From positions 1 through 36,260 of the IMG/VR virus record IMGVR_UViG_3300029207_000009: a DNA stretch of 36,260 nucleotides; one strand, given 5' to 3'. The position numbers and the translations under genes were made by a program. Position 1 is the stretch's first letter, and the number at the start of each line of letters is the position of its first letter. Positions 2,317-36,260 of this stretch are shown here, one piece after another. The notes below the pieces were generated by a model. It was not told the DNA's origin and made no database searches. It saw only the letters and a list, made by a program, of their open reading frames with translations. Source of the DNA: a virus.

Positions 2317-3213
2317 TTAGTTCCCGTAGTTATACCCAACTACCCTGTATACCCTGTGGTGTGGTGTACTAGACGTACTCCATGCTACACCCGCAGCCGT
2401 GCTACCGAAGTTAATCTGCCGGGATGTTTCTGGCTTGCAGGTTTTTCCGGATACGTTCAGCACCGTACTCATCAACTGCATTTTTGTGCTATCATCCGCA
2501 GACAAGCGGAATGACGTCATGTCGAACAGCATTGCCCCGGATAGTACTGTCTGGCTTGTTGGAAGCTTAATGCTCTTTTGCGGTGCCTTATGTCCGGCCA
2601 CGTCTGAGTTATAGAAGATTTCTATATAATCATAATTTTTTACACTATCTGACAGCGTAAACGTTCCGGTAGTGCCATCTGTGTTGTAGTACAGGAGCTT
2701 GTGTGTTATTCTTCTCGTTCCTAGCTCCTTACTTGTAGGTGCTACGGTAAGCATCTTTTCCACCTGTGTTACATTAATACCATCCAACGTTATTTTTAAG
2801 AGAGGGCAATCATCAATGAGATCTCCGTTTTGCAGGTTTCCTTCCGTGTACTCCGGAACTACCGGATTACTCTCTGCCGGAGATCCCATTATCACAACCC
2901 ATTCATTTTTTTCCGTATTATCTCCCGAATTTCTCGTATACCGATTAACCACAAGGTCTACTCTTTTCATTCCTTGCGTGCCATTTTCCAGTTCTACCTC
3001 GTCGTAAGTTCCGATCTTGACAGAAGACACATTGCCGTGATGATACATCATTCCGCTTCTGATTTTAAGCGAGTTATTAGACACGAGCTCTGGCTCCAGA
3101 TTTTCCCCAGATGCCAAGATACAGCTATCGCTTCCTATAACTCCCTCAAGAATCTGTCGGAACTGCTGGCTTGTCACATGCGCTTTTCCTGTTCTTCCAC
3201 TAACTATTTCCAT
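2317..3213 (-). CDS. Tail fibre / receptor-binding protein candidate
   Basis: Start moved to MEIVSGRTGKAHV (ATG 3213, SD GGAGAG). The call rests on position after the Tal-like gene. No catalytic motif recognised. Confidence 0.6.
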   Translation of the reverse strand: MEIVSGRTGKAHVTSQQFRQILEGVIGSDSCILASGENLEPELVSNNSLKIRSGMMYHHGNVSSVKIGTYDEVELENGTQGMKRVDLVVNRYTRNSGDNTEKNEWVVIMGSPAESNPVVPEYTEGNLQNGDLIDDCPLLKITLDGINVTQVEKMLTVAPTSKELGTRRITHKLLYYNTDGTTGTFTLSDSVKNYDYIEIFYNSDVAGHKAPQKSIKLPTSQTVLSGAMLFDMTSFRLSADDSTKMQLMSTVLNVSGKTCKPETSRQINFGSTAAGVAWSTSSTPHHRVYRVVGYNYGN

Positions 3214-29383: not shown

Positions 29384-29605
29384 TTACTCCCTCCCTTCTT
29401 TTGAACCTGTTTCATCTGTTGCTGAAATTAATTCATCCACAGCCACACCGAAATATCCAGCCAAAATTTTAAGCTTGGCTATCTTCGGTTTGCTCCTTCC
29501 TGATTTCCAATCAGAAAAAGTAGACTTCGGAATCCCCGTATCTTTTGCTACCCTGTAGTCAGATACACCTTTTTGATTTCGAAGTTCTACATATCTTTCA
29601 TACAT
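29384..29605 (-). CDS. Cro-like XRE-family HTH protein (73 aa), first gene of the leftward early operon
   Basis: Start at MYERYVELRNQKGVSDYRVAKDTGIPKSTFSDWKSGRSKPK (ATG 29605, SD GAGGTGA). It is a paralog of the divergent repressor's HTH. Confidence 0.8.
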   Translation of the reverse strand: MYERYVELRNQKGVSDYRVAKDTGIPKSTFSDWKSGRSKPKIAKLKILAGYFGVAVDELISATDETGSKEGRE

Positions 29606-29620
29606 AAAAATAATCACCTC

Positions 29621-29655
29621 ATTTCCGAACTTTCTATTGATTTTAGTTCGGAAAT
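29621..29655. promoter_or_regulatory. Operator: perfect 11-nt inverted repeat ATTTCCGAACT-N13-AGTTCGGAAAT
   Basis: Read directly. It lies between the candidate leftward promoter and the Cro-like SD. Confidence 0.7.
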
Positions 29656-29660
29656 CAGAT

Positions 29661-29688
29661 ACAATATATTTACCAGATACATTGACAA
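29661..29688 (-). promoter_or_regulatory. Candidate leftward early promoter
   Basis: The minus strand reads TTGTCA (29688..29683), a 16-nt spacer, then TATTGT (29666..29661). The -10 is only a moderate match. Confidence 0.4.
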
Positions 29689-29711
29689 ATGAATTAAAAC
29701 TTAATTCTGTT

Positions 29712-29740
29712 TTGATTTCCGAACTTTGTAGCTTTATTAT
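29712..29740 (+). promoter_or_regulatory. Candidate rightward (repressor) promoter overlapping operator copy 3
   Basis: TTGATT (29712..29717), a 17-nt spacer, then TATTAT (29735..29740). The half-site ATTTCCGAACT at 29715..29725 sits in the spacer. Confidence 0.55.
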
Positions 29741-29747
29741 AGTGCGG

Positions 29748-29790
29748 ATTTCAGAACTTGTCAATAACTTTTTGTACTGATTTCAGAATT
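29748..29790. promoter_or_regulatory. Two further operator half-site copies in the repressor leader
   Basis: ATTTCAGAACT at 29748..29758 and ATTTCAGAATT at 29780..29790. Confidence 0.55.
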
Positions 29791-29809
29791 TATTATTTAG
29801 AGGTGTATT

Positions 29810-30187
29810 ATGTATGAAATTTATTGCAAGTTAAGAGATTCCAAAGGGATGAAAGACTCTGATGTAGCAAAGGCTACTGGAATCACAAAATCCACTTTTT
29901 CAGATTGGAAGAATGGCAGAAGTAATCCTAAAGATGCTAAGTTGCAGAAGATAGCTGATTTATTTGGTGTAACTGTCGAATATATTCGCACTGGGAAAAA
30001 ATCTAACGAATACTACACAAACAACGAAACTGCACAGGTAGCACAAGAGATATTTGAAAACAAAGAACTGAAAGCGCTGTTTGATGTCCAGAAAGATATG
30101 GATCCGGACGACTTAAAAGCTCTGCATAGCATGGCTCTCGCGCTTAAACGAAAGGAACGTGGTGATATTGACGACACCGGATGTTAA
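29810..30187 (+). CDS. cI-like XRE-family repressor
   Basis: 125 aa, MYEIYCKLRDSKGMKDSDVAKATGITKSTFSDWKNGRSNPKDAKLQKIADLFGVTVEYI. It is divergent from the Cro-like gene and followed by an ImmA-like gene. Confidence 0.85.
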   Translation: MYEIYCKLRDSKGMKDSDVAKATGITKSTFSDWKNGRSNPKDAKLQKIADLFGVTVEYIRTGKKSNEYYTNNETAQVAQEIFENKELKALFDVQKDMDPDDLKALHSMALALKRKERGDIDDTGC

Positions 30188-30566
30188 TGTCGTTCTTATG
30201 GATTTTCCTAGTAAAAAAGGAAATGAAATGGTTGTTCCGAACGAAGACGGAAGCTACACGATACTGATCAATGCCGGATTGAATTATGAATCTCAGCTTA
30301 AGGCATATGAGCATGCTATGAGTCATATAACAAATGATGACTTTTCGAAAGGTAATGTACAAGAAATTGAATACTATGCTCATCATCTACACAAAGATCC
30401 TGAGCCGGTTCAAATCTATCTTGATCGTATCAAGCAATTGCAAGCGGAACGAAGACGATTAAAGAAGCGGATTGCTCGTGATCAGAAACGTGTTGAATTT
30501 ATTCAGGAACATTGCGATATGTTCCACCGAGCTGAACACCACTATCTATATGGTGATGATTTATAA
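30159..30566 (+). CDS. ImmA/IrrE-like protein (short form) with a degenerate zincin motif
   Basis: 135 aa. ...NEDGSYTILINAGLNYESQLKAYEHAMSHITNDDF resembles short ImmA proteins, but reads HAMSH where HExxH is expected. The start is uncertain (GTG 30159/30162, TTG 30168 or ATG 30198). Confidence 0.65.
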   Translation: MVILTTPDVNVVLMDFPSKKGNEMVVPNEDGSYTILINAGLNYESQLKAYEHAMSHITNDDFSKGNVQEIEYYAHHLHKDPEPVQIYLDRIKQLQAERRRLKKRIARDQKRVEFIQEHCDMFHRAEHHYLYGDDL

Positions 30567-30588
30567 AATATGAAAGAGAGGAAAATGT

Positions 30589-31638
30589 ATGGAGTTCAAT
30601 GATGTAATTAAACAATTTTCAGAAAGGATACTGTCTTTAAAAGACACCATCACTACAGAAGAATCCACAAAAATGTCTCTTGTAGTGCCTTTATTTCAAC
30701 TTCTTGGGTATGATGTTTTCAATCCAAATGAATTTTGCCCAGAGTATATTGCTGATGTAGGAATTAAAAAAGGCGAAAAGGTTGATTATGCAATCCTTGA
30801 AAATGGACAGCCGAATATTTTAGTCGAATGCAAAAGTTGCTCAGAGCAACTCGACAAACATTCGTCTCAACTTTTTAGATATTTCGGGACATCTCCTGCT
30901 AAATTTGGCATTCTTACAAATGGCATAATATATCGTTTTTATACAGATTTAGAAGAATCAAACAAAATGGATCTTGTGCCATTTCTAGAAATAGACATGA
31001 CAAATTTAAAAGATTCTTCCATCAATGAATTAAAAAAATTTTGTAAAGATAATTTTGATAAGGACAAAATATTTAGTACTGCCGAAGAGCTTAAATATAG
31101 CAGTCAAATAAAAAACATCTTAACAAAACAGTTTGAATCTCCGACAGAAGACTTTGTTCGATTTATTTTAGCGAATATATACGATGGTCAAAAGAATCAG
31201 AGAATAATTGAAAAATTTACGCCTGTGGTAAAACGAGCTTTCTCTTCTTTTGTAAATGAAATAGTAAATAGTAAAATTTCTTCTGCATTAGCTGACGATT
31301 ATGATAAAGATGAAGAATCAGAACCCGAGATCAAAGAACCCGCATCAAAGATTGTTACAACGGAAGATGAAATTGAAAGTTTCTACATTATTCGCGGACT
31401 TCTTGCTGGTATCGTACCCGTTGAAGATATAGTTCACCGTGATACCGAAAGTTATTTTGGAATTCTGTATAAAGACAATAATAGAAAACCGATTTGTCGC
31501 CTCAATCTTGATGCAAGAAATAAACAGCTTCTCATCCCGGATGCTAATAAAAAATTCGAACGTATTTATATCGACTCTTTAAACGATTTGTACAAATACA
31601 AAAACCGTTTAATAGAAGTTGTAAAGAGATATATGTAA
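30589..31638 (+). CDS. Stand-alone HsdR-N-terminal-type PD-(D/E)xK nuclease-fold protein with an uncharacterised C-terminal half
   Basis: 349 aa, AT-rich. EESTKMSLVVPLFQLLGYDV...KVDYAILENGQPNILVECKS...QLFRYF...FGILTNGIIYRFY matches the HSDR_N pattern (D...E-x-K). Confidence 0.75.
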   Translation: MEFNDVIKQFSERILSLKDTITTEESTKMSLVVPLFQLLGYDVFNPNEFCPEYIADVGIKKGEKVDYAILENGQPNILVECKSCSEQLDKHSSQLFRYFGTSPAKFGILTNGIIYRFYTDLEESNKMDLVPFLEIDMTNLKDSSINELKKFCKDNFDKDKIFSTAEELKYSSQIKNILTKQFESPTEDFVRFILANIYDGQKNQRIIEKFTPVVKRAFSSFVNEIVNSKISSALADDYDKDEESEPEIKEPASKIVTTEDEIESFYIIRGLLAGIVPVEDIVHRDTESYFGILYKDNNRKPICRLNLDARNKQLLIPDANKKFERIYIDSLNDLYKYKNRLIEVVKRYM

Positions 31639-31777
31639 TTCATCCAGTATCTCTAACCATAAATACACTGCCCTCTTGATACGATAGTATTTGTATGGCG
31701 GAGATATCTGATTGAATAAATAATCTCTGAAAAAAGCGAAACATTTTGGAACAAATAAAACGAAGGGGAAAAAACAT

Positions 31778-32410
31778 ATGAAAAAGAAATTTGTAGCACT
31801 ATTACTGGCATCATCTATGGCATTGTCATTATCTGCTTGTGGAAGATCTGGATCTGATTCTTCAAGTTCTAAGTCCGACACGAAAAAAGAAGAAACAGTA
31901 AAATCTGATAAAAAAGCTGATGAAGCTACCACTGAAGATTCTTCAGATAAAGCAAATTCATCCGAAAGTGACACATCTGATCAAGGAAACGATTCTACTT
32001 CTTCTACATCAGATACACAAACAGCATCTTCGTTAAATATGGACAAATGTATATCTGATTTAAAAGCGAACTTACCGCTTGATCCAGATTACACCTATGT
32101 TCAAGATTATTATATCGGAGTAAAAGATGATACAATAACTATAACTGCAGTTGTTGATGATTCTACTGATCCATCCCTTGCTCTTGATTTTGCTGATACT
32201 CTTGTAAGGCAATTGAATTTATATGCGCAAATGCAAGATTCTTCTATAGAATCAAGTTCACAGAACTTTTATGGAGGTCTCTATACTCGCTATAATGCCC
32301 TTGTTGGCGTCGCACCAGCCAGTAAAACTAATAGCCAGAAAGATTGGTTTGTCTACGACGGCATATCTGGTGGAAAGGTTATGCTTAAATTAAATAAACA
32401 ATATAGATAA
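31778..32410 (+). CDS. Secreted lipoprotein with a Ser/Asp/Thr-rich linker
   Basis: 210 aa. It has a signal peptide plus lipobox, MKKKFVALLLASSMALSLSAC. This is followed by about 65 aa of low-complexity S/D/T/K/E and then a globular domain. Confidence 0.8.
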   Translation: MKKKFVALLLASSMALSLSACGRSGSDSSSSKSDTKKEETVKSDKKADEATTEDSSDKANSSESDTSDQGNDSTSSTSDTQTASSLNMDKCISDLKANLPLDPDYTYVQDYYIGVKDDTITITAVVDDSTDPSLALDFADTLVRQLNLYAQMQDSSIESSSQNFYGGLYTRYNALVGVAPASKTNSQKDWFVYDGISGGKVMLKLNKQYR

Positions 32411-32600
32411 AATTAAAAATCCCCGGTGTCTGCCAAACACCAGGGAAAATCCCGAGTAATATATACGGCGAAGGATTCGCATTGCAATTTACTGAAGTAA
32501 TTGCCATTTTGCCAACATGGGCAAAATCGTATAATCATCAAAAAAAATAAGAAACGCCCCTGCTGGTAGTACCTGCGATATTAGATACGCCACTCAGTTT

Positions 32601-32682
32601 GTAAAACAAATAAACGCTCCCACATAGTAGGAGCGTTAAAACAACAGCTCTAATAGAATATCACAAAACAGCTTTGATTACA
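32601..32682 (-). ncRNA. Candidate ~80-nt small RNA (promoter plus intrinsic terminator, no ORF)
   Basis: It lies downstream of the minus-strand promoter at 32689..32716. It ends in AACGCTCC-N9-GGAGCGTT (32637..32613) followed by TATTTGTTTTAC. No start codon with an SD lies between. Confidence 0.4.
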
Positions 32683-32688
32683 AACAAA

Positions 32689-32716
32689 ATTGTATTTTTT
32701 ATGTATTTTCTTTCAA
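32689..32716 (-). promoter_or_regulatory. SigA-type promoter for the candidate sRNA, back-to-back with the NYN promoter
   Basis: The minus strand reads TTGAAA (32716..32711), a 16-nt spacer, then TACAAT (32694..32689). Confidence 0.5.
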
Positions 32717-32722
32717 AAAGTA

Positions 32723-32751
32723 TTGATTTTTAACTGCGATGGGCATATATT
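32723..32751 (+). promoter_or_regulatory. SigA-type promoter of the NYN gene
   Basis: TTGATT (32723..32728), a 17-nt spacer, then TATATT (32746..32751). Confidence 0.6.
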
Positions 32752-32776
32752 TACATTGTAACGAAAGTTACATGTA
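32752..32776. promoter_or_regulatory. Palindrome at the predicted transcription start (operator or 5' hairpin)
   Basis: TACATTGTAAC-GAAA-GTTACATGTA: 10 bp with one bulged T and a GAAA loop. Confidence 0.5.
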
Positions 32777-32812
32777 CAAGTATTTAACGCTAAACGCGAG
32801 GTACAGTTAAGT

Positions 32813-32877
32813 ATATCCCTAGCAGTAATCCTCCCACTATAAGGGAAGTGATGAGCCTAGGGATATTTTTTCTTTTT
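32813..32877 (+). terminator. Leader terminator/attenuator directly upstream of the NYN SD
   Basis: Perfect 10-bp stem ATATCCCTAG...CTAGGGATAT (32813..32822 and 32857..32866) with a 34-nt structured loop, followed by TTTTTTCTTTTT and then AGGAGG. The loop contains CCTCC. Confidence 0.55.
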
Positions 32878-32891
32878 AGGAGGTATAACAT

Positions 32892-33566
32892 ATGATAAGA
32901 ACTGCCATACTTGTTGATGGCGCATTTTACAGAAAGCGCGCATATCATTTATACGGTGATAAATCTCCTGCTGAACGAGCCGATGAATTAGAATGGTATT
33001 GTAAACGACACATCCGTGAAGAGCATAACGAGAAATGTTCTTTATATCGAATTTTTTATTACGATTGTCCTCCAATGGATAAAAAAGTGTACCATCCATT
33101 TCTCAAGCGACAGATCGACTTTGGAAAGACACCAGATTATAAATGGGCTACTGAATTCTTTAAAGAATTGACTCACAAAAGAAAATTTGCTCTTCGAATG
33201 GGACGCTTAGCTGAAGAACAAGCAGCATTCAACATACGCCCAAATATAACAAAAAAATTATGCAACGGTTCCCTGAATTTTGACCAACTCACTGAAAAAG
33301 ATTTTGCTATTGATGTAAAACAAAAAGGTGTTGACATGCGTATTGGTGTCGACATTTCTTCATTGGCATTTAAAAAGCAAGTCGACAGAATTATCTTAAT
33401 CGCCGGGGACAGTGATTTTGTTCCAGCATCTAAACAAGCGCGACGTGAAGGAATAGATTTCATACTAGATCCTATGCGCGCACCTATAAAAGATGACTTA
33501 TTCGAACATATTGATGGAATGCGCACAAAAGCTCCAAAGCTTTCAAACGCTACAAGTACAAAATAA
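32892..33566 (+). CDS. NYN-domain (LabA-like, PIN-fold) protein, putative ribonuclease
   Basis: 224 aa. AILVDGAFY at the N-terminus and KGVDMRIGVDISSLAF...RIILIAGDSDFVPASKQARREGIDF match NYN domain hallmarks. Confidence 0.8.
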   Translation: MIRTAILVDGAFYRKRAYHLYGDKSPAERADELEWYCKRHIREEHNEKCSLYRIFYYDCPPMDKKVYHPFLKRQIDFGKTPDYKWATEFFKELTHKRKFALRMGRLAEEQAAFNIRPNITKKLCNGSLNFDQLTEKDFAIDVKQKGVDMRIGVDISSLAFKKQVDRIILIAGDSDFVPASKQARREGIDFILDPMRAPIKDDLFEHIDGMRTKAPKLSNATSTK

Positions 33567-33740
33567 AAAACCGCTCCTGCGCCAACAAGAACGGTTTCCC
33601 CATAATCAATATGAGGACGTATATAACGTATATATCCGAAGAGATACATACAATACTCACAAAAATATTGTATCATCTTCGGGCAGCTATCGCAAGCAGA
33701 ACACACGTTCCGTGCTAGCTGTTATTTTTATACCCATTTT

Positions 33741-33756
33741 TGTGCGACATCGCACA
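33741..33756. repeat. Palindrome TGTGCGACATCGCACA, copy 3 of 3, 23 nt upstream of the integrase ATG and abutting a TATAAT
   Basis: Read directly. TATAAT lies at 33757..33762. Confidence 0.9.
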
Positions 33757-33779
33757 TATAATTACAGGAAGGTGATACA

Positions 33780-35261
33780 ATGAGCGTAAAATATGCATAC
33801 GGCTACATCCGTGTATCCACTCATGATCAGGAAGAGATCTCTCCGGACTCCCAGGAGCACCTCCTCCGGGACTATGCAGCCAAGAACAATATTGTAATCC
33901 TGAAGATCTTCACGGACCTTGGTATTTCCGGAAGAAAAGCCAACAAGCGTCCCGGCTTCCAGGAGATGATCGGACTGGCCAAAGGTGATGATCATCCGGT
34001 TGATCAGATCCTGGTATGGAAGTTTTCCAGGTTCGCCCGGAATCAGGAAGAATCTATCGTCTATAAATCTCTATTAAAAAAGCAACATAATGTAGATGTC
34101 GTGAGCGTATCTGAGCCACTCTCCGATAATCCTTTCGGCAGCCTGATCGAGCGTATCATCGAATGGATGGATGAATACTACTCTATCCGGTTATCTGGCG
34201 AAGTGCATCGTGGAATGAAAGAAAATGCACTCCGCGGAGCATACCAGGCACGTCCGCCGCTTGGCTACAAGGTTGTGGAGCATGGCAAGCCGCCGGTGAT
34301 TGTTCCGGAAGAAGCAAAGATTGTTCGGACTATATTCGAAAAATACACAAATGAAGGCATGAGCTTCTTTGATATCGCCAGATACCTAAATTCTTTAGGA
34401 CTCAAGACTTCGCACGGAAAGCCATTTGAGCGAAGATCTGTCGAATACATCATCCAAAATCCTTCCTATTGTGGCATGATCCGGTGGAACCGGACAGAGA
34501 ATAGCACCAATCGTATCAAAGATAAGGATGAATGGATTGTTACAGAAGGGCAACAGCCGGCTATCATATCAAAGGAATTGTTTGAATCGGCACAGGAACG
34601 ATTTAAAGCCACCTACAAGCAGGTCGGCAAGCGCCCCTCTTCCACTTATAAGCATTGGCTTTCCGGACTGCTGAAATGCCCGGATTGCGGACGCACCTTA
34701 ACCTCAGCCACTATGAAACGAGTCAATGGGGAAAAATACTCTTACTTCTCCTGCTACGGATACAGCAAAGGAAAATGCAAAAAACCGAACGGCATAAGCT
34801 CACTGGTCCTTGAAAAGGAAGTTCTGACCAGCATCAAAGAAATATTGGATACCAAAGATATTGTCTATGAATTGCGTGAATATCAACCCACAGAGCAGTT
34901 TGATGAGCGCAAGGCTATAACAGAACAATTGGAAAGTTTAACCGGCAAAGAGGAACGAATAAAAGCCTCCTACCGGGAAGGGATTGATACACTGGAAGAA
35001 TATAAAGCGAATAAAGCTATCATTCAGAAAGAACGGGAATCCTTAGAACAACAATTAAAGGAATTGAAAAAGGCAGCGCATAAATCTGATCAGGATCCGG
35101 CGGATGCTATGCTGCAGAAGGTACGGAGTGTGTATGATATTCTCATCTCCAACAATTATACATACATTCAAAAGAACGAAGCCCTGAAGCAGATCATCGA
35201 CAAGATTATCTACGATCGCAAGAACGATTCTCTTAAAATCTACTTTTTCCTATACAGGTAA
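33780..35261 (+). CDS. int: Large serine recombinase (integrase)
   Basis: 493 aa. The N-terminal resolvase catalytic motif is YGYIRVSTHDQ. It has a recombinase domain, a zinc ribbon (CPDCGRTL...CYGYSKGKC) and a C-terminal coiled coil. Confidence 0.93.
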   Translation: MSVKYAYGYIRVSTHDQEEISPDSQEHLLRDYAAKNNIVILKIFTDLGISGRKANKRPGFQEMIGLAKGDDHPVDQILVWKFSRFARNQEESIVYKSLLKKQHNVDVVSVSEPLSDNPFGSLIERIIEWMDEYYSIRLSGEVHRGMKENALRGAYQARPPLGYKVVEHGKPPVIVPEEAKIVRTIFEKYTNEGMSFFDIARYLNSLGLKTSHGKPFERRSVEYIIQNPSYCGMIRWNRTENSTNRIKDKDEWIVTEGQQPAIISKELFESAQERFKATYKQVGKRPSSTYKHWLSGLLKCPDCGRTLTSATMKRVNGEKYSYFSCYGYSKGKCKKPNGISSLVLEKEVLTSIKEILDTKDIVYELREYQPTEQFDERKAITEQLESLTGKEERIKASYREGIDTLEEYKANKAIIQKERESLEQQLKELKKAAHKSDQDPADAMLQKVRSVYDILISNNYTYIQKNEALKQIIDKIIYDRKNDSLKIYFFLYR

Positions 35262-35299
35262 AATGCCCGCAAGCCCAGTAAAATCAAGGGTTTGCGTAT

Positions 35300-35351
35300 A
35301 CTTTATAGGTTATGACAATTTGGTTGACCTTTTTGCTATAACCTATAAAGT
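35300..35351. other. Candidate attP (or bidirectional terminator): perfect 14-nt inverted repeat with a 24-nt centre
   Basis: ACTTTATAGGTTAT (35300..35313), 24 nt, then ATAACCTATAAAGT (35338..35351). It lies between the convergent integrase and endolysin genes. Confidence 0.4.
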
Positions 35352-35389: not shown

Positions 35390-36260
35390 TTATCTAAACT
35401 GAATAGCCTCAATCCTAAGTTCCTGGCCTACGGTTCCAAGAGTTGCTACTCCATCGGCTCTTGTCCAGTCTGTCCATCCGGAACTCTGGATATGAACACG
35501 GTATTCAAAGTCGCCGTCAAAACATAAGCATTCGATACGTTTCTTTTCGCCAACAGTTCCGATAATCGTGTCTTTGGTGATCGTGCCGTAATCCACCCAG
35601 CCTTTGCTCTGGATGTGAGCCTTTGCCTTAATAGTCTTTCCATATGGATTGATTCGGATCGCTTCCAGGCGTAATGCATGGCCTGTGATACCAATCACAT
35701 TCTCTGCGGCTTTTGGTGATAACCATCCCTTACTCTGTACGTGCGGTTCGACGGAGAACATGGATTTCTTAATCTCCAGTGCTTCCATCTGCAGTCCTTT
35801 TCCGGTCGTACCAGCCCACTCTCCGTTGTTGGCCCATTCTGACCAGCCAATACTCTTCTGGTGGACTCTGTACAGGTAGAAAGATTCCTTTCCGGTGATC
35901 TTGATTGCTTCCAGTCTTCTGTTCTGTCCGGTGGTTCCGATCAGAGTGTCTTTGGTGATGTTCTTGTATTCTTTGTTGCCGATTCCTTTCATATGAACAA
36001 CAACATCTGTTTCTCCAACCGGCTGGATGTGCAGTGCTTCGATCCGGCGATTCTGGTTTGTTGAGCCGACCATTAATCCGTCAGACTGCCAAGCTCCCCA
36101 GCCAGCACTTCTCATGTGTGCCTGGTATGAAATTGTACCAAACTTATCCGTCTTGTTCTGGAATACTCCACCGGATTTGATCTCTCCATCGACAGGTTCT
36201 GTTTTCTTGGCTGATGCTACCGGTGCCGCAGATGTGATCCCGAATGCTTTAAGGATTCCT
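35390..36260 (-). CDS. Endolysin, C-terminal cell-wall-binding part with about six ChW (clostridial hydrophobic-W) repeats; same gene as 1..581
   Basis: The track ORF 35390..36115 stays open upstream to the window end. It shows repeated ~45-aa units of the type Y/H-x-x-H-[IVM]-Q/K-S-x-GW-x-x-W...GT-x-G-x-x-x-R-[IL]-E-A, for example YRVHIQSSGWTDWTRADGVATLGTVGQELRIEAIQF. The frame is continuous with 1..581 after wrap-around. Confidence 0.88.
   Translation of the reverse strand, partial: GILKAFGITSAAPVASAKKTEPVDGEIKSGGVFQNKTDKFGTISYQAHMRSAGWGAWQSDGLMVGSTNQNRRIEALHIQPVGETDVVVHMKGIGNKEYKNITKDTLIGTTGQNRRLEAIKITGKESFYLYRVHQKSIGWSEWANNGEWAGTTGKGLQMEALEIKKSMFSVEPHVQSKGWLSPKAAENVIGITGHALRLEAIRINPYGKTIKAKAHIQSKGWVDYGTITKDTIIGTVGEKKRIECLCFDGDFEYRVHIQSSGWTDWTRADGVATLGTVGQELRIEAIQFR
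36162..36260. repeat. Terminal overlap copy 2, identical to 1..99
   Basis: Same comparison as for copy 1. The repeat lies inside the endolysin coding sequence. Confidence 0.97.

Follow-up and report, generated by a model that had tools for sequence, protein, structure and literature searches.

IMG/VR record IMGVR_UViG_3300029207_000009 is a viral DNA of 36,260 nt, which we analyzed at its full length (hereafter, the window) and in which an initial annotation, made from the sequence alone, had singled out an AT-rich island of three genes (positions 30,589 to 33,566) as possible lysogen-expressed cargo. The two ends of the window form an exact direct repeat of 99 bp (1-99 and 36162-36260, leaving ~36.16 kb of unique sequence), and the window is therefore a circularly assembled phage genome, whose remaining large open reading frames (ORFs) are siphovirus structural and replication genes. 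Our principal finding concerns the third gene of the island, which encodes a NYN/LabA-like PIN-fold protein and is preceded by a structured leader RNA of the TEG147 class that accompanies homologous NYN genes in phages, prophages, and bacterial genomes.

A three-gene slot in the lysogeny module

Three plus-strand ORFs lie between a cI-like/ImmA-position repressor pair and a large serine integrase, exactly where the initial annotation had placed them (Table 1), and the families that it had assigned by eye proved right: the HsdR_N-type protein and the NYN protein matched their Pfam families above the cut-offs (E = 9e-16 for HSDR_N and 2.4e-10 for NYN), and the protein between them has a lipobox. 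The AT-richness of the island was also real, since its GC content (0.346, that is, 34.6%) is lower than that of every equal-sized (2978-bp) window within positions 1-29000 of the first 29 kb (0.390-0.455). Moreover, our data support the proposal that this is the accessory-gene slot of a lysogeny module, and the 3-kb segment most likely serves a temperate siphophage of human-gut Firmicutes as the variable accessory-gene ("moron") slot of its lysogeny module. A megablast search with the 6-kb region found no match among GenBank phages. The prophage is very common in the human gut, its exact NYN and nuclease proteins being indexed in 3018 and 1914 blocks, respectively, of an assembly collection that is mostly human-gut metagenome.

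Table 1. Positions of the features of the island and its flanks in the window (RBS, ribosome-binding site; HTH, helix-turn-helix)
Feature	Position	Strand	Details
cI-like HTH repressor	29810-30187	+	Pfam HTH_3, 1.5e-12
ImmA-position ORF, 135 aa	30159-30566	+	overlaps the cI-like gene by 29 nt
HsdR_N-type PD-(D/E)xK nuclease-like protein, 349 aa	30589-31638	+	starts 22 nt past the ImmA-position ORF
Junction/intergenic segment	31639-31777		common to prophages with different upstream genes; left boundary of the lipoprotein cassette
Lipoprotein, 210 aa	31778-32410	+	signal peptide MKKKFVALLLASSMALSLSAC; lipobox LSAC (Cys21)
Terminator-like hairpin at the lipoprotein/NYN junction	32420-32446	-	12-bp stem plus TTTTTAATTT; -24.2 kcal/mol, z -3.25
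Candidate divergent transcript	32613-32716	-	promoter TTGAAA-16-TACAAT at 32716-32689 (10/12 promoter match); hairpin 32637-32613; fold z -2.6
Promoter of the NYN cassette, TTGATT-17-TATATT	32723-32751	+	consensus scan; A/T-rich tract before it
5′ hairpin TGTAAC-GAAA-GTTACA (palindrome TGTAACGAAAGTTACA)	32757-32772	+	6-bp stem, GAAA loop; 5 nt past the -10 box
TEG147-class leader, three-tier hairpin and U-tract	32809-32877	+	Rfam RF03535; fold -21.1 kcal/mol, z -3.1
NYN/LabA-like PIN-fold protein, 224 aa	32892-33566	+	Pfam NYN; RBS AGGAGG 32878-32883
Hairpin at the NYN cassette 3′ end	33565-33600		T-run on the minus strand
NYN cassette 3′ end	33565-33715		right recombination boundary 33715/33716; NYN-less prophages resume homology at 33716
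Large serine integrase	33780-35261	+	Pfam Resolvase, Recombinase, Zn_ribbon_recom
att junction	35329		end of homology with integrated copies; 16/16 prophage loci stop there (blastn)

A TEG147-class leader upstream of NYN genes

As the initial annotation had read it, NYN is equipped with a promoter of its own and with a leader resembling a terminator; counterparts of both are conserved in the homologues. Downstream of the promoter and of a small 5′ hairpin, the leader folds into a three-tier hairpin with (i) an outer stem (32813-32822/32857-32866), (ii) an AGUA/GAR internal loop, (iii) an inner CCUCCC/GGGAAG stem, and (iv) an ACUAUAA apical loop, which is followed by a U-tract (32866-32877), the RBS, and the ATG codon at 32892. 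This leader has the build of an intrinsic terminator, with a stable stem and a U-tract placed between the promoter and the RBS. Furthermore, two sequences at the promoter region, TTGATTTTT and GGGCATA, were invariant in six diverged leaders.

Against Rfam, the window leader matched family RF03535 (TEG147) from end to end at 35.3 bits (E = 2.4e-5), sharing with it the same 60-nt three-tier hairpin, the AGUA...GAA internal loop, and the U-tail of a structure that is backed by covariation, but it falls below the gathering score of 56.1 bits and is thus not a member by score; the likeness also differs in that Teg147 is listed as a stand-alone small RNA (sRNA) (PMC5826253, PMC3053349). Streptococcus phage Javan85 and Dorea phage DO134P1 likewise have a TEG147 match, at 52.6 and 36.2 bits, respectively, immediately before their NYN homologues. 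Moreover, three copies that do pass the Rfam cut-off, from Staphylococcus hominis (63.9 bits), a Streptococcus sp. (57.6 bits), and Peptoniphilus (56.3 bits), are all located directly upstream of NYN homologues, so that bona fide TEG147 members are themselves NYN leaders; in S. hominis, an HTH protein, a tyrosine integrase, TEG147, and NYN follow one another at the edge of an integrative element. The Staphylococcus aureus Teg147 comes from a genomic island (PMC3053349) and is catalogued, also as sRNA85 or srn_0960, as a 60-nt RNA whose function is not known (PMC5826253), and JAR3D predicts a sarcin-ricin loop for the family (PMC13085918), which Rfam already labels "Cis-reg". In the literature searchable here, which does not include all journals, no link of Teg147 to NYN genes was found.

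The same build was seen in the 130 nt preceding each of ~55 homologues, including those from Burkholderia phiE202 and Moraxella Mcat4. From 20 aligned leaders we made a covariance model, R1, which comprises the outer stem, the internal loop with AGUA on its 5′ side and GAA or GAG on its 3′ side, middle and inner stems, and an apical loop of 7 nt in which AU is invariant; the window leader scored 80.9 bits with this model. In the seed alignment, compensatory changes occurred at all 16 of the 16 pairs, with 86% of the cells paired, compared with 69% in shuffles and 29-53% in slid controls. The 79 genome hits outside the seed again showed compensatory changes at 16/16 pairs and 89.7% of the cells paired (68.7% in shuffles, 34-57% in slid controls), and 291 of their cells were doubly changed where 79 were expected. 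RNAalifold predicts the same fold as R1.

The leader and the NYN gene occur together in both directions of search. Across 752 kb of viral and prophage loci, R1 gave one hit directly upstream of each NYN gene having upstream sequence, on the same strand, and no hit in six related prophages that lack NYN. Among 80 genome loci, which span Lachnospiraceae, Oscillospiraceae, Treponema, Sphaerochaetaceae, Akkermansia, Alloscardovia, Corynebacterium, Streptococcus, and Staphylococcus hominis, the hit lay directly upstream of NYN in 78, with no off-target hit in 594 kb. In the reverse test, a 17-base exact core pattern found 40 matches in 2.9 million viral contigs, 33 of which have a NYN gene 40-100 nt downstream and one of which precedes a frameshifted NYN gene. 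We conclude that the link between this RNA and this gene is very strong, though not absolute.

The spacing of the parts is conserved as well. At least five T residues follow within 9 nt of the stem in 97% of 126 copies, and the RBS and start codon come next, at a median distance of 17 nt. Of 122 distinct homologous upstream regions, 66% have a promoter that matches the consensus at 10 or more of 12 positions, compared with 4% of shuffles; its -10 box precedes the motif by a median of 30 nt, and in 85 of 105 leaders a small hairpin of varying sequence stands between the two. These data bear on whether the hairpin is a mere insulating terminator of the upstream lysogeny operon, with no regulatory meaning for NYN. 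Its strong stem and U-tract would suit such a role, as would the different hairpin and T-run found between cI and NYN in coliphage ev099; however, the conserved promoter upstream of the hairpin places it inside the NYN transcript, and the AGUA/GAA and apical loops, which termination does not need, are conserved across phyla. We therefore regard insulation as very unlikely to be its whole purpose.

The palindrome that the initial annotation had called operator-like is present, and among the homologues its position is kept while its sequence varies. A 5′-terminal RNA hairpin is more likely than an operator at this site, and the operator role proposed for it becomes the less likely one. We also considered whether the 5′ hairpin typically has a GNRA loop; such loops make up only 9 of 37 tetraloops, so that the loop adds little in favor of an RNA-level over an operator role.

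Several leaders depart from the usual arrangement. The window leader has ~36 extra nt (32773-32808) between the 5′ hairpin and the TEG147-class hairpin, where most homologues have 3-7 nt. There is a single hairpin per locus, save in two loci with a second copy, L100 (3661-3723 and 3901-3963, 240 nt apart) and L034 (3528-3582 and 4924-4986, 1.4 kb apart), in both of which the extra copy is the one farther upstream of NYN. Leader copies without an intact NYN gene were found in L271 (3619-3681), L251 (9250-9312), L261 (3845-3908 and 6216-6278), L252 (4766-4828), and L260 (2116-2178). Two of these copies, those of L271 and L251, are stand-alone, with a promoter, hairpins, and a U-tract but no ORF; one precedes a 288-aa ORF with no Pfam match, one an ORF of ~101 aa with a D..ExK-like motif, and one a frameshifted NYN gene.

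The NYN protein itself matched Pfam PF01936 at 41.5 bits (cut-off 24.2) over residues 132-190 only, and PHROG 5783 over its full length (294.5 bits). It shares with the LabA-like NYN proteins (PF01936, COG1432; PDB 2qip) the N-terminal DG, GVD...D, and GDSDF motifs, which are present and invariant, but differs from them in having ~130 residues between the first strand and the GVD motif, and the Pfam match is limited to residues 132-190 because of this separation. Asp9, Asp58, Asp148, Asp154, Asp173, and Asp175, among other residues, are invariant across 20 NYN homologues of 37-75% identity. These six acidic residues are the set expected of the PIN/NYN nuclease fold, and the protein is predicted from its sequence to be a ribonuclease (RNase) with a complete acidic active site. 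The AlphaFold2 model is confident, with a predicted local distance difference test score (pLDDT) of 85. The family comprises at least 8000 clusters at 90% identity, and no function is established for PF01936 proteins of bacteria (PMC5499597).

The genes around NYN follow a loose pattern. Upstream, NYN frequently adjoins a repressor-type protein (HTH, S24, or M78), this neighbor being otherwise variable, and no protein partner is conserved; downstream, 49 of 107 loci have an integrase next to NYN (36 of the tyrosine and 13 of the serine type), mostly on the same strand. NYN homologues also lie between cI and N in the lambdoid coliphage ev099, in Stx2a phages, and in Proteus phage Brookers, which is the slot of lambda rexAB and BTP1 bstA (PMC8585504). 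The adjacency to integrases of either type, together with the window's lack of any convincing terminator on the plus strand from NYN to int, could mean that NYN and the leader help the phage to control its own lysogeny or integration, for example by RNA processing that sets integrase or repressor levels. However, the cassette is missing from close prophage relatives that use the same integrase and att site and is thus dispensable; NYN does not adjoin the integrase in the lambdoid phages or in Moraxella phage Mcat4; and low GC and an own promoter are typical of morons. We consider such a control function quite unlikely.

The enterobacterial NYN homologues (ev099, in L075 at 2880-3000, and Brookers, in L076) have 38-40% identity and a basic C-terminal extension; this version was present in 275 of 5426 complete Escherichia coli genomes. 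In Moraxella phage Mcat4 (L020, 4779-4979), a C4 antisense RNA (71 bits) with its a1/b1 target and isrK matches lies directly downstream of NYN.

Exchange of the three genes as separate cassettes

The initial annotation had proposed that the three genes act together, and had named independent occurrence without conserved linkage as the observation that would speak against this. Independent occurrence is what linkage and synteny revealed, and the proposal is not borne out. In the contigs examined, the prophage occupies one chromosomal site, adjoining rseP-dxr-cdsA-uppS-frr-pyrH, and the slot of otherwise near-identical prophages contained (i) the nuclease, lipoprotein, and NYN genes, as in the window; (ii) the nuclease, a Zn-ribbon protein, and NYN; (iii) the nuclease and a 276-aa protein, without NYN; (iv) the nuclease and lipoprotein, without NYN; or (v) a different repressor/M78 pair and other genes, plus the lipoprotein and/or NYN.

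Cassette boundaries were determined by blastn of the window against 16 related prophage loci. The region from 29385 to 31741, with the cI-like gene, the ImmA-position ORF, and the nuclease, is one recombination block; it is followed by the lipoprotein cassette (from 31638/31741 to 32403-32480), the NYN cassette (from 32403-32480 to 33715), and the integrase block (33716-35329). The boundaries are sharp. Homology of L003-L008 to the window begins at 31638, precisely the final base of the nuclease gene's stop codon; that of L009 and L011-L016 ends at 31741; and the breakpoints between lipoprotein and NYN fall within 32403-32480.

The co-occurrence counts point the same way. Within the flanks of 141 NYN-homologue loci, a nuclease homologue was found in 3 and a lipoprotein homologue in none (0/141); the 80 nuclease loci included NYN in 3 and the lipoprotein in 2; and none of the 16 lipoprotein loci had NYN. 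Likewise, among GenBank phages, no record was common to the 19 nuclease records and the 30 listed of 65 NYN records. Because the cassettes are swapped with sharp boundaries and the counts show no linkage, the three genes are separately exchanged cassettes of an ordinary mosaic cargo slot, and no single system. A cooperating defense or exclusion system made of a DNase, an envelope lipoprotein, and an RNase would account for genes that are adjacent, on the same strand, all low in GC, and set in a lysogeny-module slot, and the exact trio does recur in some metagenome contigs (L002 and L010). Against it stand the independent assortment in near-identical prophages, the near-zero linkage over the 141, 80, and 16 homologue loci, and a NYN gene with its own promoter and with cassette boundaries in both intergenic regions of the trio, which together make a single system extremely improbable.

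The first gene, encoding the nuclease-like protein, matched HSDR_N at 58.7 bits and HSDR_N_2 at 32.8 bits in Pfam, and PHROG 4225 ("endonuclease") over its full length at 498 bits. Its HsdR/Mrr-type motif (Asp66, Glu80-x-Lys82, and Gln94-xxx-Tyr98) is intact, with residues invariant in the alignment. This D..ExK..QxxxY motif and the HSDR_N match resemble the N-terminal domain of type I HsdR and the Mrr-like type IV nucleases; unlike HsdR, the protein has only 349 aa and no Pfam domain besides the HSDR_N types, thus no helicase/ATPase and no superfamily 2 helicase/translocase domains, there is no HsdM, HsdS, or methyltransferase among the 31 large ORFs of the phage, and, unlike both groups, it forms part of a cI/ImmA operon in temperate phages. 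Indeed, its upstream same-strand neighbor in 31 diverse viral contigs was Peptidase_M78 in 15, an HTH protein in 12, and S24 in 3, and its downstream neighbor was an integrase in 11 of the 29 contigs having a downstream ORF, with varied cargo in the others. The order repressor-ImmA-nuclease-(cargo)-integrase also occurs in Streptococcus pneumoniae phage IPP25 and Enterococcus phage EG-TP1, and in 8/8 related prophage loci shown, the nuclease is paired with the same 125-aa and 134-aa genes. By these sequence comparisons, the nuclease is a conserved third gene of the cI/ImmA lysogeny operon in many Firmicute phages, and it is probably co-transcribed with the repressor/ImmA pair in the lysogen. 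It may act as a DNA-directed exclusion or defense nuclease, and we flag it as a nuclease that has no methylase and is a candidate for expression in the lysogen; the literature searched yielded no relevant link of HsdR_N to a lysogeny module. A fold search with its AlphaFold2 model was discarded as meaningless given a pLDDT of 51, and the C-terminal domain (residues ~259-348) is without assignment.

The second gene encodes a lipoprotein with an S/D/T/K/E-rich linker (residues ~22-85) followed by a C-terminal domain of ~125 aa that belongs to no known family. It had no Pfam match, and its NCBIfam and PHROGs matches cover the N-terminal lipoprotein signal only, those in PHROGs being to families of unknown function; the common ~125-aa C-terminal domain defines a small unnamed family of 203 representative clusters. 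The lipoprotein was found in 16 viral contigs, mostly close relatives of the window prophage, and is restricted to this prophage lineage; the integrase directly follows it in most loci where the flank reaches the integrase. Dairy phages encode superinfection-exclusion lipoproteins, namely Ltp of TP-J34, Sie2009, and Sfi21 orf203, which are likewise small secreted lipoproteins located between the repressor module and the integrase. While Pfam, PHROG, and PDB searches detected no homology to them, and the C-terminal domain belongs to its own unnamed family, this analogy of position faintly suggests that the window lipoprotein might be an envelope-level exclusion factor.

The minus strand was examined for the divergent sRNA proposed in the initial annotation. 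A promoter-like site and two terminator-like hairpins do exist there, but the sRNA gains no support from conservation or from Rfam, a scan of which gave no meaningful match to the candidate: the segment 32411-32760 is conserved in near-identical cassettes only, and the hairpin at 32637-32613 is degenerate in the Dorea phage and absent in four other leaders. We do not endorse this sRNA.

In the flanks, the 135-aa ORF at the ImmA position had no Pfam, PADLOC, or other family match; the gene at this position in other phages is a Peptidase_M78. Since homology to the integrated copies stops at 35329, the interval from the integrase to the minus-strand ChW-repeat gene (35390-36115) should contain the attP core. 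A perfect 12/12 sigma-70 consensus, TTGACA-17-TATAAT, lies on the minus strand at 29736-29764, in the cI/cro-like divergent region. It sits at the annotated start of a 126-aa HTH ORF (29384-29764, minus strand) for which related loci call a 73-aa product, and the true start of this ORF is probably further downstream than annotated. In the related prophage L014 (12173-13658), the serine integrase is broken into two pieces, of 69 and 300 aa, and L014 is probably a decaying prophage.

Proposed function of the NYN cassette and comparison with known systems

We consider it probable that the island is a lysogen cargo hotspot with three independent cassettes, in which the NYN RNase is gated by an attenuator-type leader and acts for the benefit of the lysogen. 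A sigma-70-type promoter would start the NYN transcript, which would open with the small 5′ hairpin; the TEG147-class hairpin, with a sarcin-ricin-like AGUA/GAA loop and a conserved apical loop, would come next, ending in the U-tract ~17 nt before the RBS. Most transcripts would stop at this U-tract and yield an "sRNA" of ~60 nt as in S. aureus, and such a terminated leader would look like the 60-nt stand-alone Teg147. Read-through, set by a factor that recognizes the conserved loops, would then fix the amount of RNase in the lysogen, which the enzyme might serve, for example, against superinfecting phage.

Some observations weigh against this reading. Two Corynebacterium loci gave no R1 hit. 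R1 also detected no leader at the E. coli and Proteus NYN homologues, which are preceded by a different long hairpin and T-run, as read from their sequences. Six of the 40 core-pattern matches occur without NYN, two before no ORF and others before unrelated ORFs; they score 35-75 bits with the model, which marks them as genuine copies and rules out chance matches, so that the leader is not strictly NYN-specific and may act on its own. The three terminator-like hairpins of the island have their T-run on the minus strand, while all of its genes are on the plus strand, and lie at or near cassette boundaries. For structure, sequence and profile searches of PDB with all three proteins gave nothing useful (best match 2qip, E = 0.28-0.76 over ~30 residues), Foldseek of the NYN model against PDB returned generic Rossmann-like hits only (E > 0.009), no solved structure was found that resembles the NYN protein or the nuclease, and the AlphaFold2 model of the nuclease is poor (pLDDT 51), its alignment being shallow. 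Finally, the initial annotation had recognized no named defense system in the trio, and PADLOC-DB v2 bears this out, with weak partial matches only (NYN PDLC01154, 6e-7 over 49 residues; HEC-09, 2e-4; REase_MTase_IIG, 6e-3), so that a defense role is suggested by position alone; nor did the searchable literature link NYN genes to prophage defense.

The stand-alone leader copies bring in the main rival to the attenuator-type reading, beside which lysogeny control, insulation, and a single three-gene system are all less likely. The leader RNA could be a partner of the NYN RNase, serving as its antidote, decoy, or self-immunity element in the manner of type III toxin-antitoxin (TA) systems or of BstA and its aba element. 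The RNase would bind or cut the hairpin, loss or dilution of the RNA on infection would free the RNase and lead to abortive infection, and phages with the RNA alone could escape. In ToxIN, a promoter, a structured RNA, and a terminator precede the RNase gene, and the NYN cassette has the same order. Moreover, the internal and apical loop sequences are kept beyond what a terminator needs; copies with a promoter and U-tract and no NYN gene occur in other viral contigs; BstA is itself a repressor-adjacent defense gene with a cis self-immunity element at its 5′ end; and in S. aureus the 60-nt copy was classed as an sRNA in its own right (PMC5826253). However, the segment 32411-32891 holds no tandem RNA repeats, unlike all known type III antitoxins, and the motif also stands before unrelated ORFs, while the enterobacterial homologues have a different hairpin. 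On balance, we judge a partner role unlikely, and an attenuator-type leader remains the reading we prefer.

Whichever way the leader works, the orphan Rfam family TEG147 gains a genomic context as the conserved leader of a large NYN RNase gene family, and the NYN genes are seen to ride the repressor/integrase slot of prophages and islands in Firmicutes, Actinobacteria, Spirochaetes, Verrucomicrobia, and Proteobacteria. The TEG147-NYN link thus offers the RNA and the protein family alike a concrete hypothesis that can be tested, with tractable models in Dorea phage DO134P1, Streptococcus phages Javan84 and Javan85, the 275 complete E. coli genomes (O121 Shiga toxin-producing E. coli among them), and Stx2a phages. 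A "new three-gene defense system" does not stand; the TEG147-class leader with its NYN cassette is a good, tractable lead. As a speculation that we would not expect to hold, the hairpin and the NYN RNase could form an undescribed two-part module, in which a single-hairpin, sarcin-ricin-loop RNA gates, senses for, or neutralizes a PIN-fold RNase; equally speculatively, such a module, in the rex-like slot of temperate phages and islands of at least five phyla, might be an abortive-infection or self-immunity device. If this were true, the stand-alone RNA copies in other phages would be counter-defense decoys.

Compared with known systems, the NYN cassette resembles the type III TA systems ToxIN, CptIN, and TenpIN in its promoter, structured non-coding RNA, intrinsic terminator, and endoribonuclease gene, but differs from them in having a single hairpin in place of tandem repeats and a NYN/PIN-fold protein in place of the ToxN/AbiQ fold. 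In position and logic, it resembles the repressor-adjacent, lysogen-expressed exclusion genes lambda rexAB, BTP1 bstA, and 933W stk: the Firmicute NYN genes lie between the repressor module and the integrase, the lambdoid and Proteus NYN genes lie between cI and N as do rexAB and bstA, and bstA has a cis element at its 5′ end as NYN has its leader. The likeness is one of arrangement, as the NYN protein has no sequence or fold relation to the products of rexAB, bstA, or stk.

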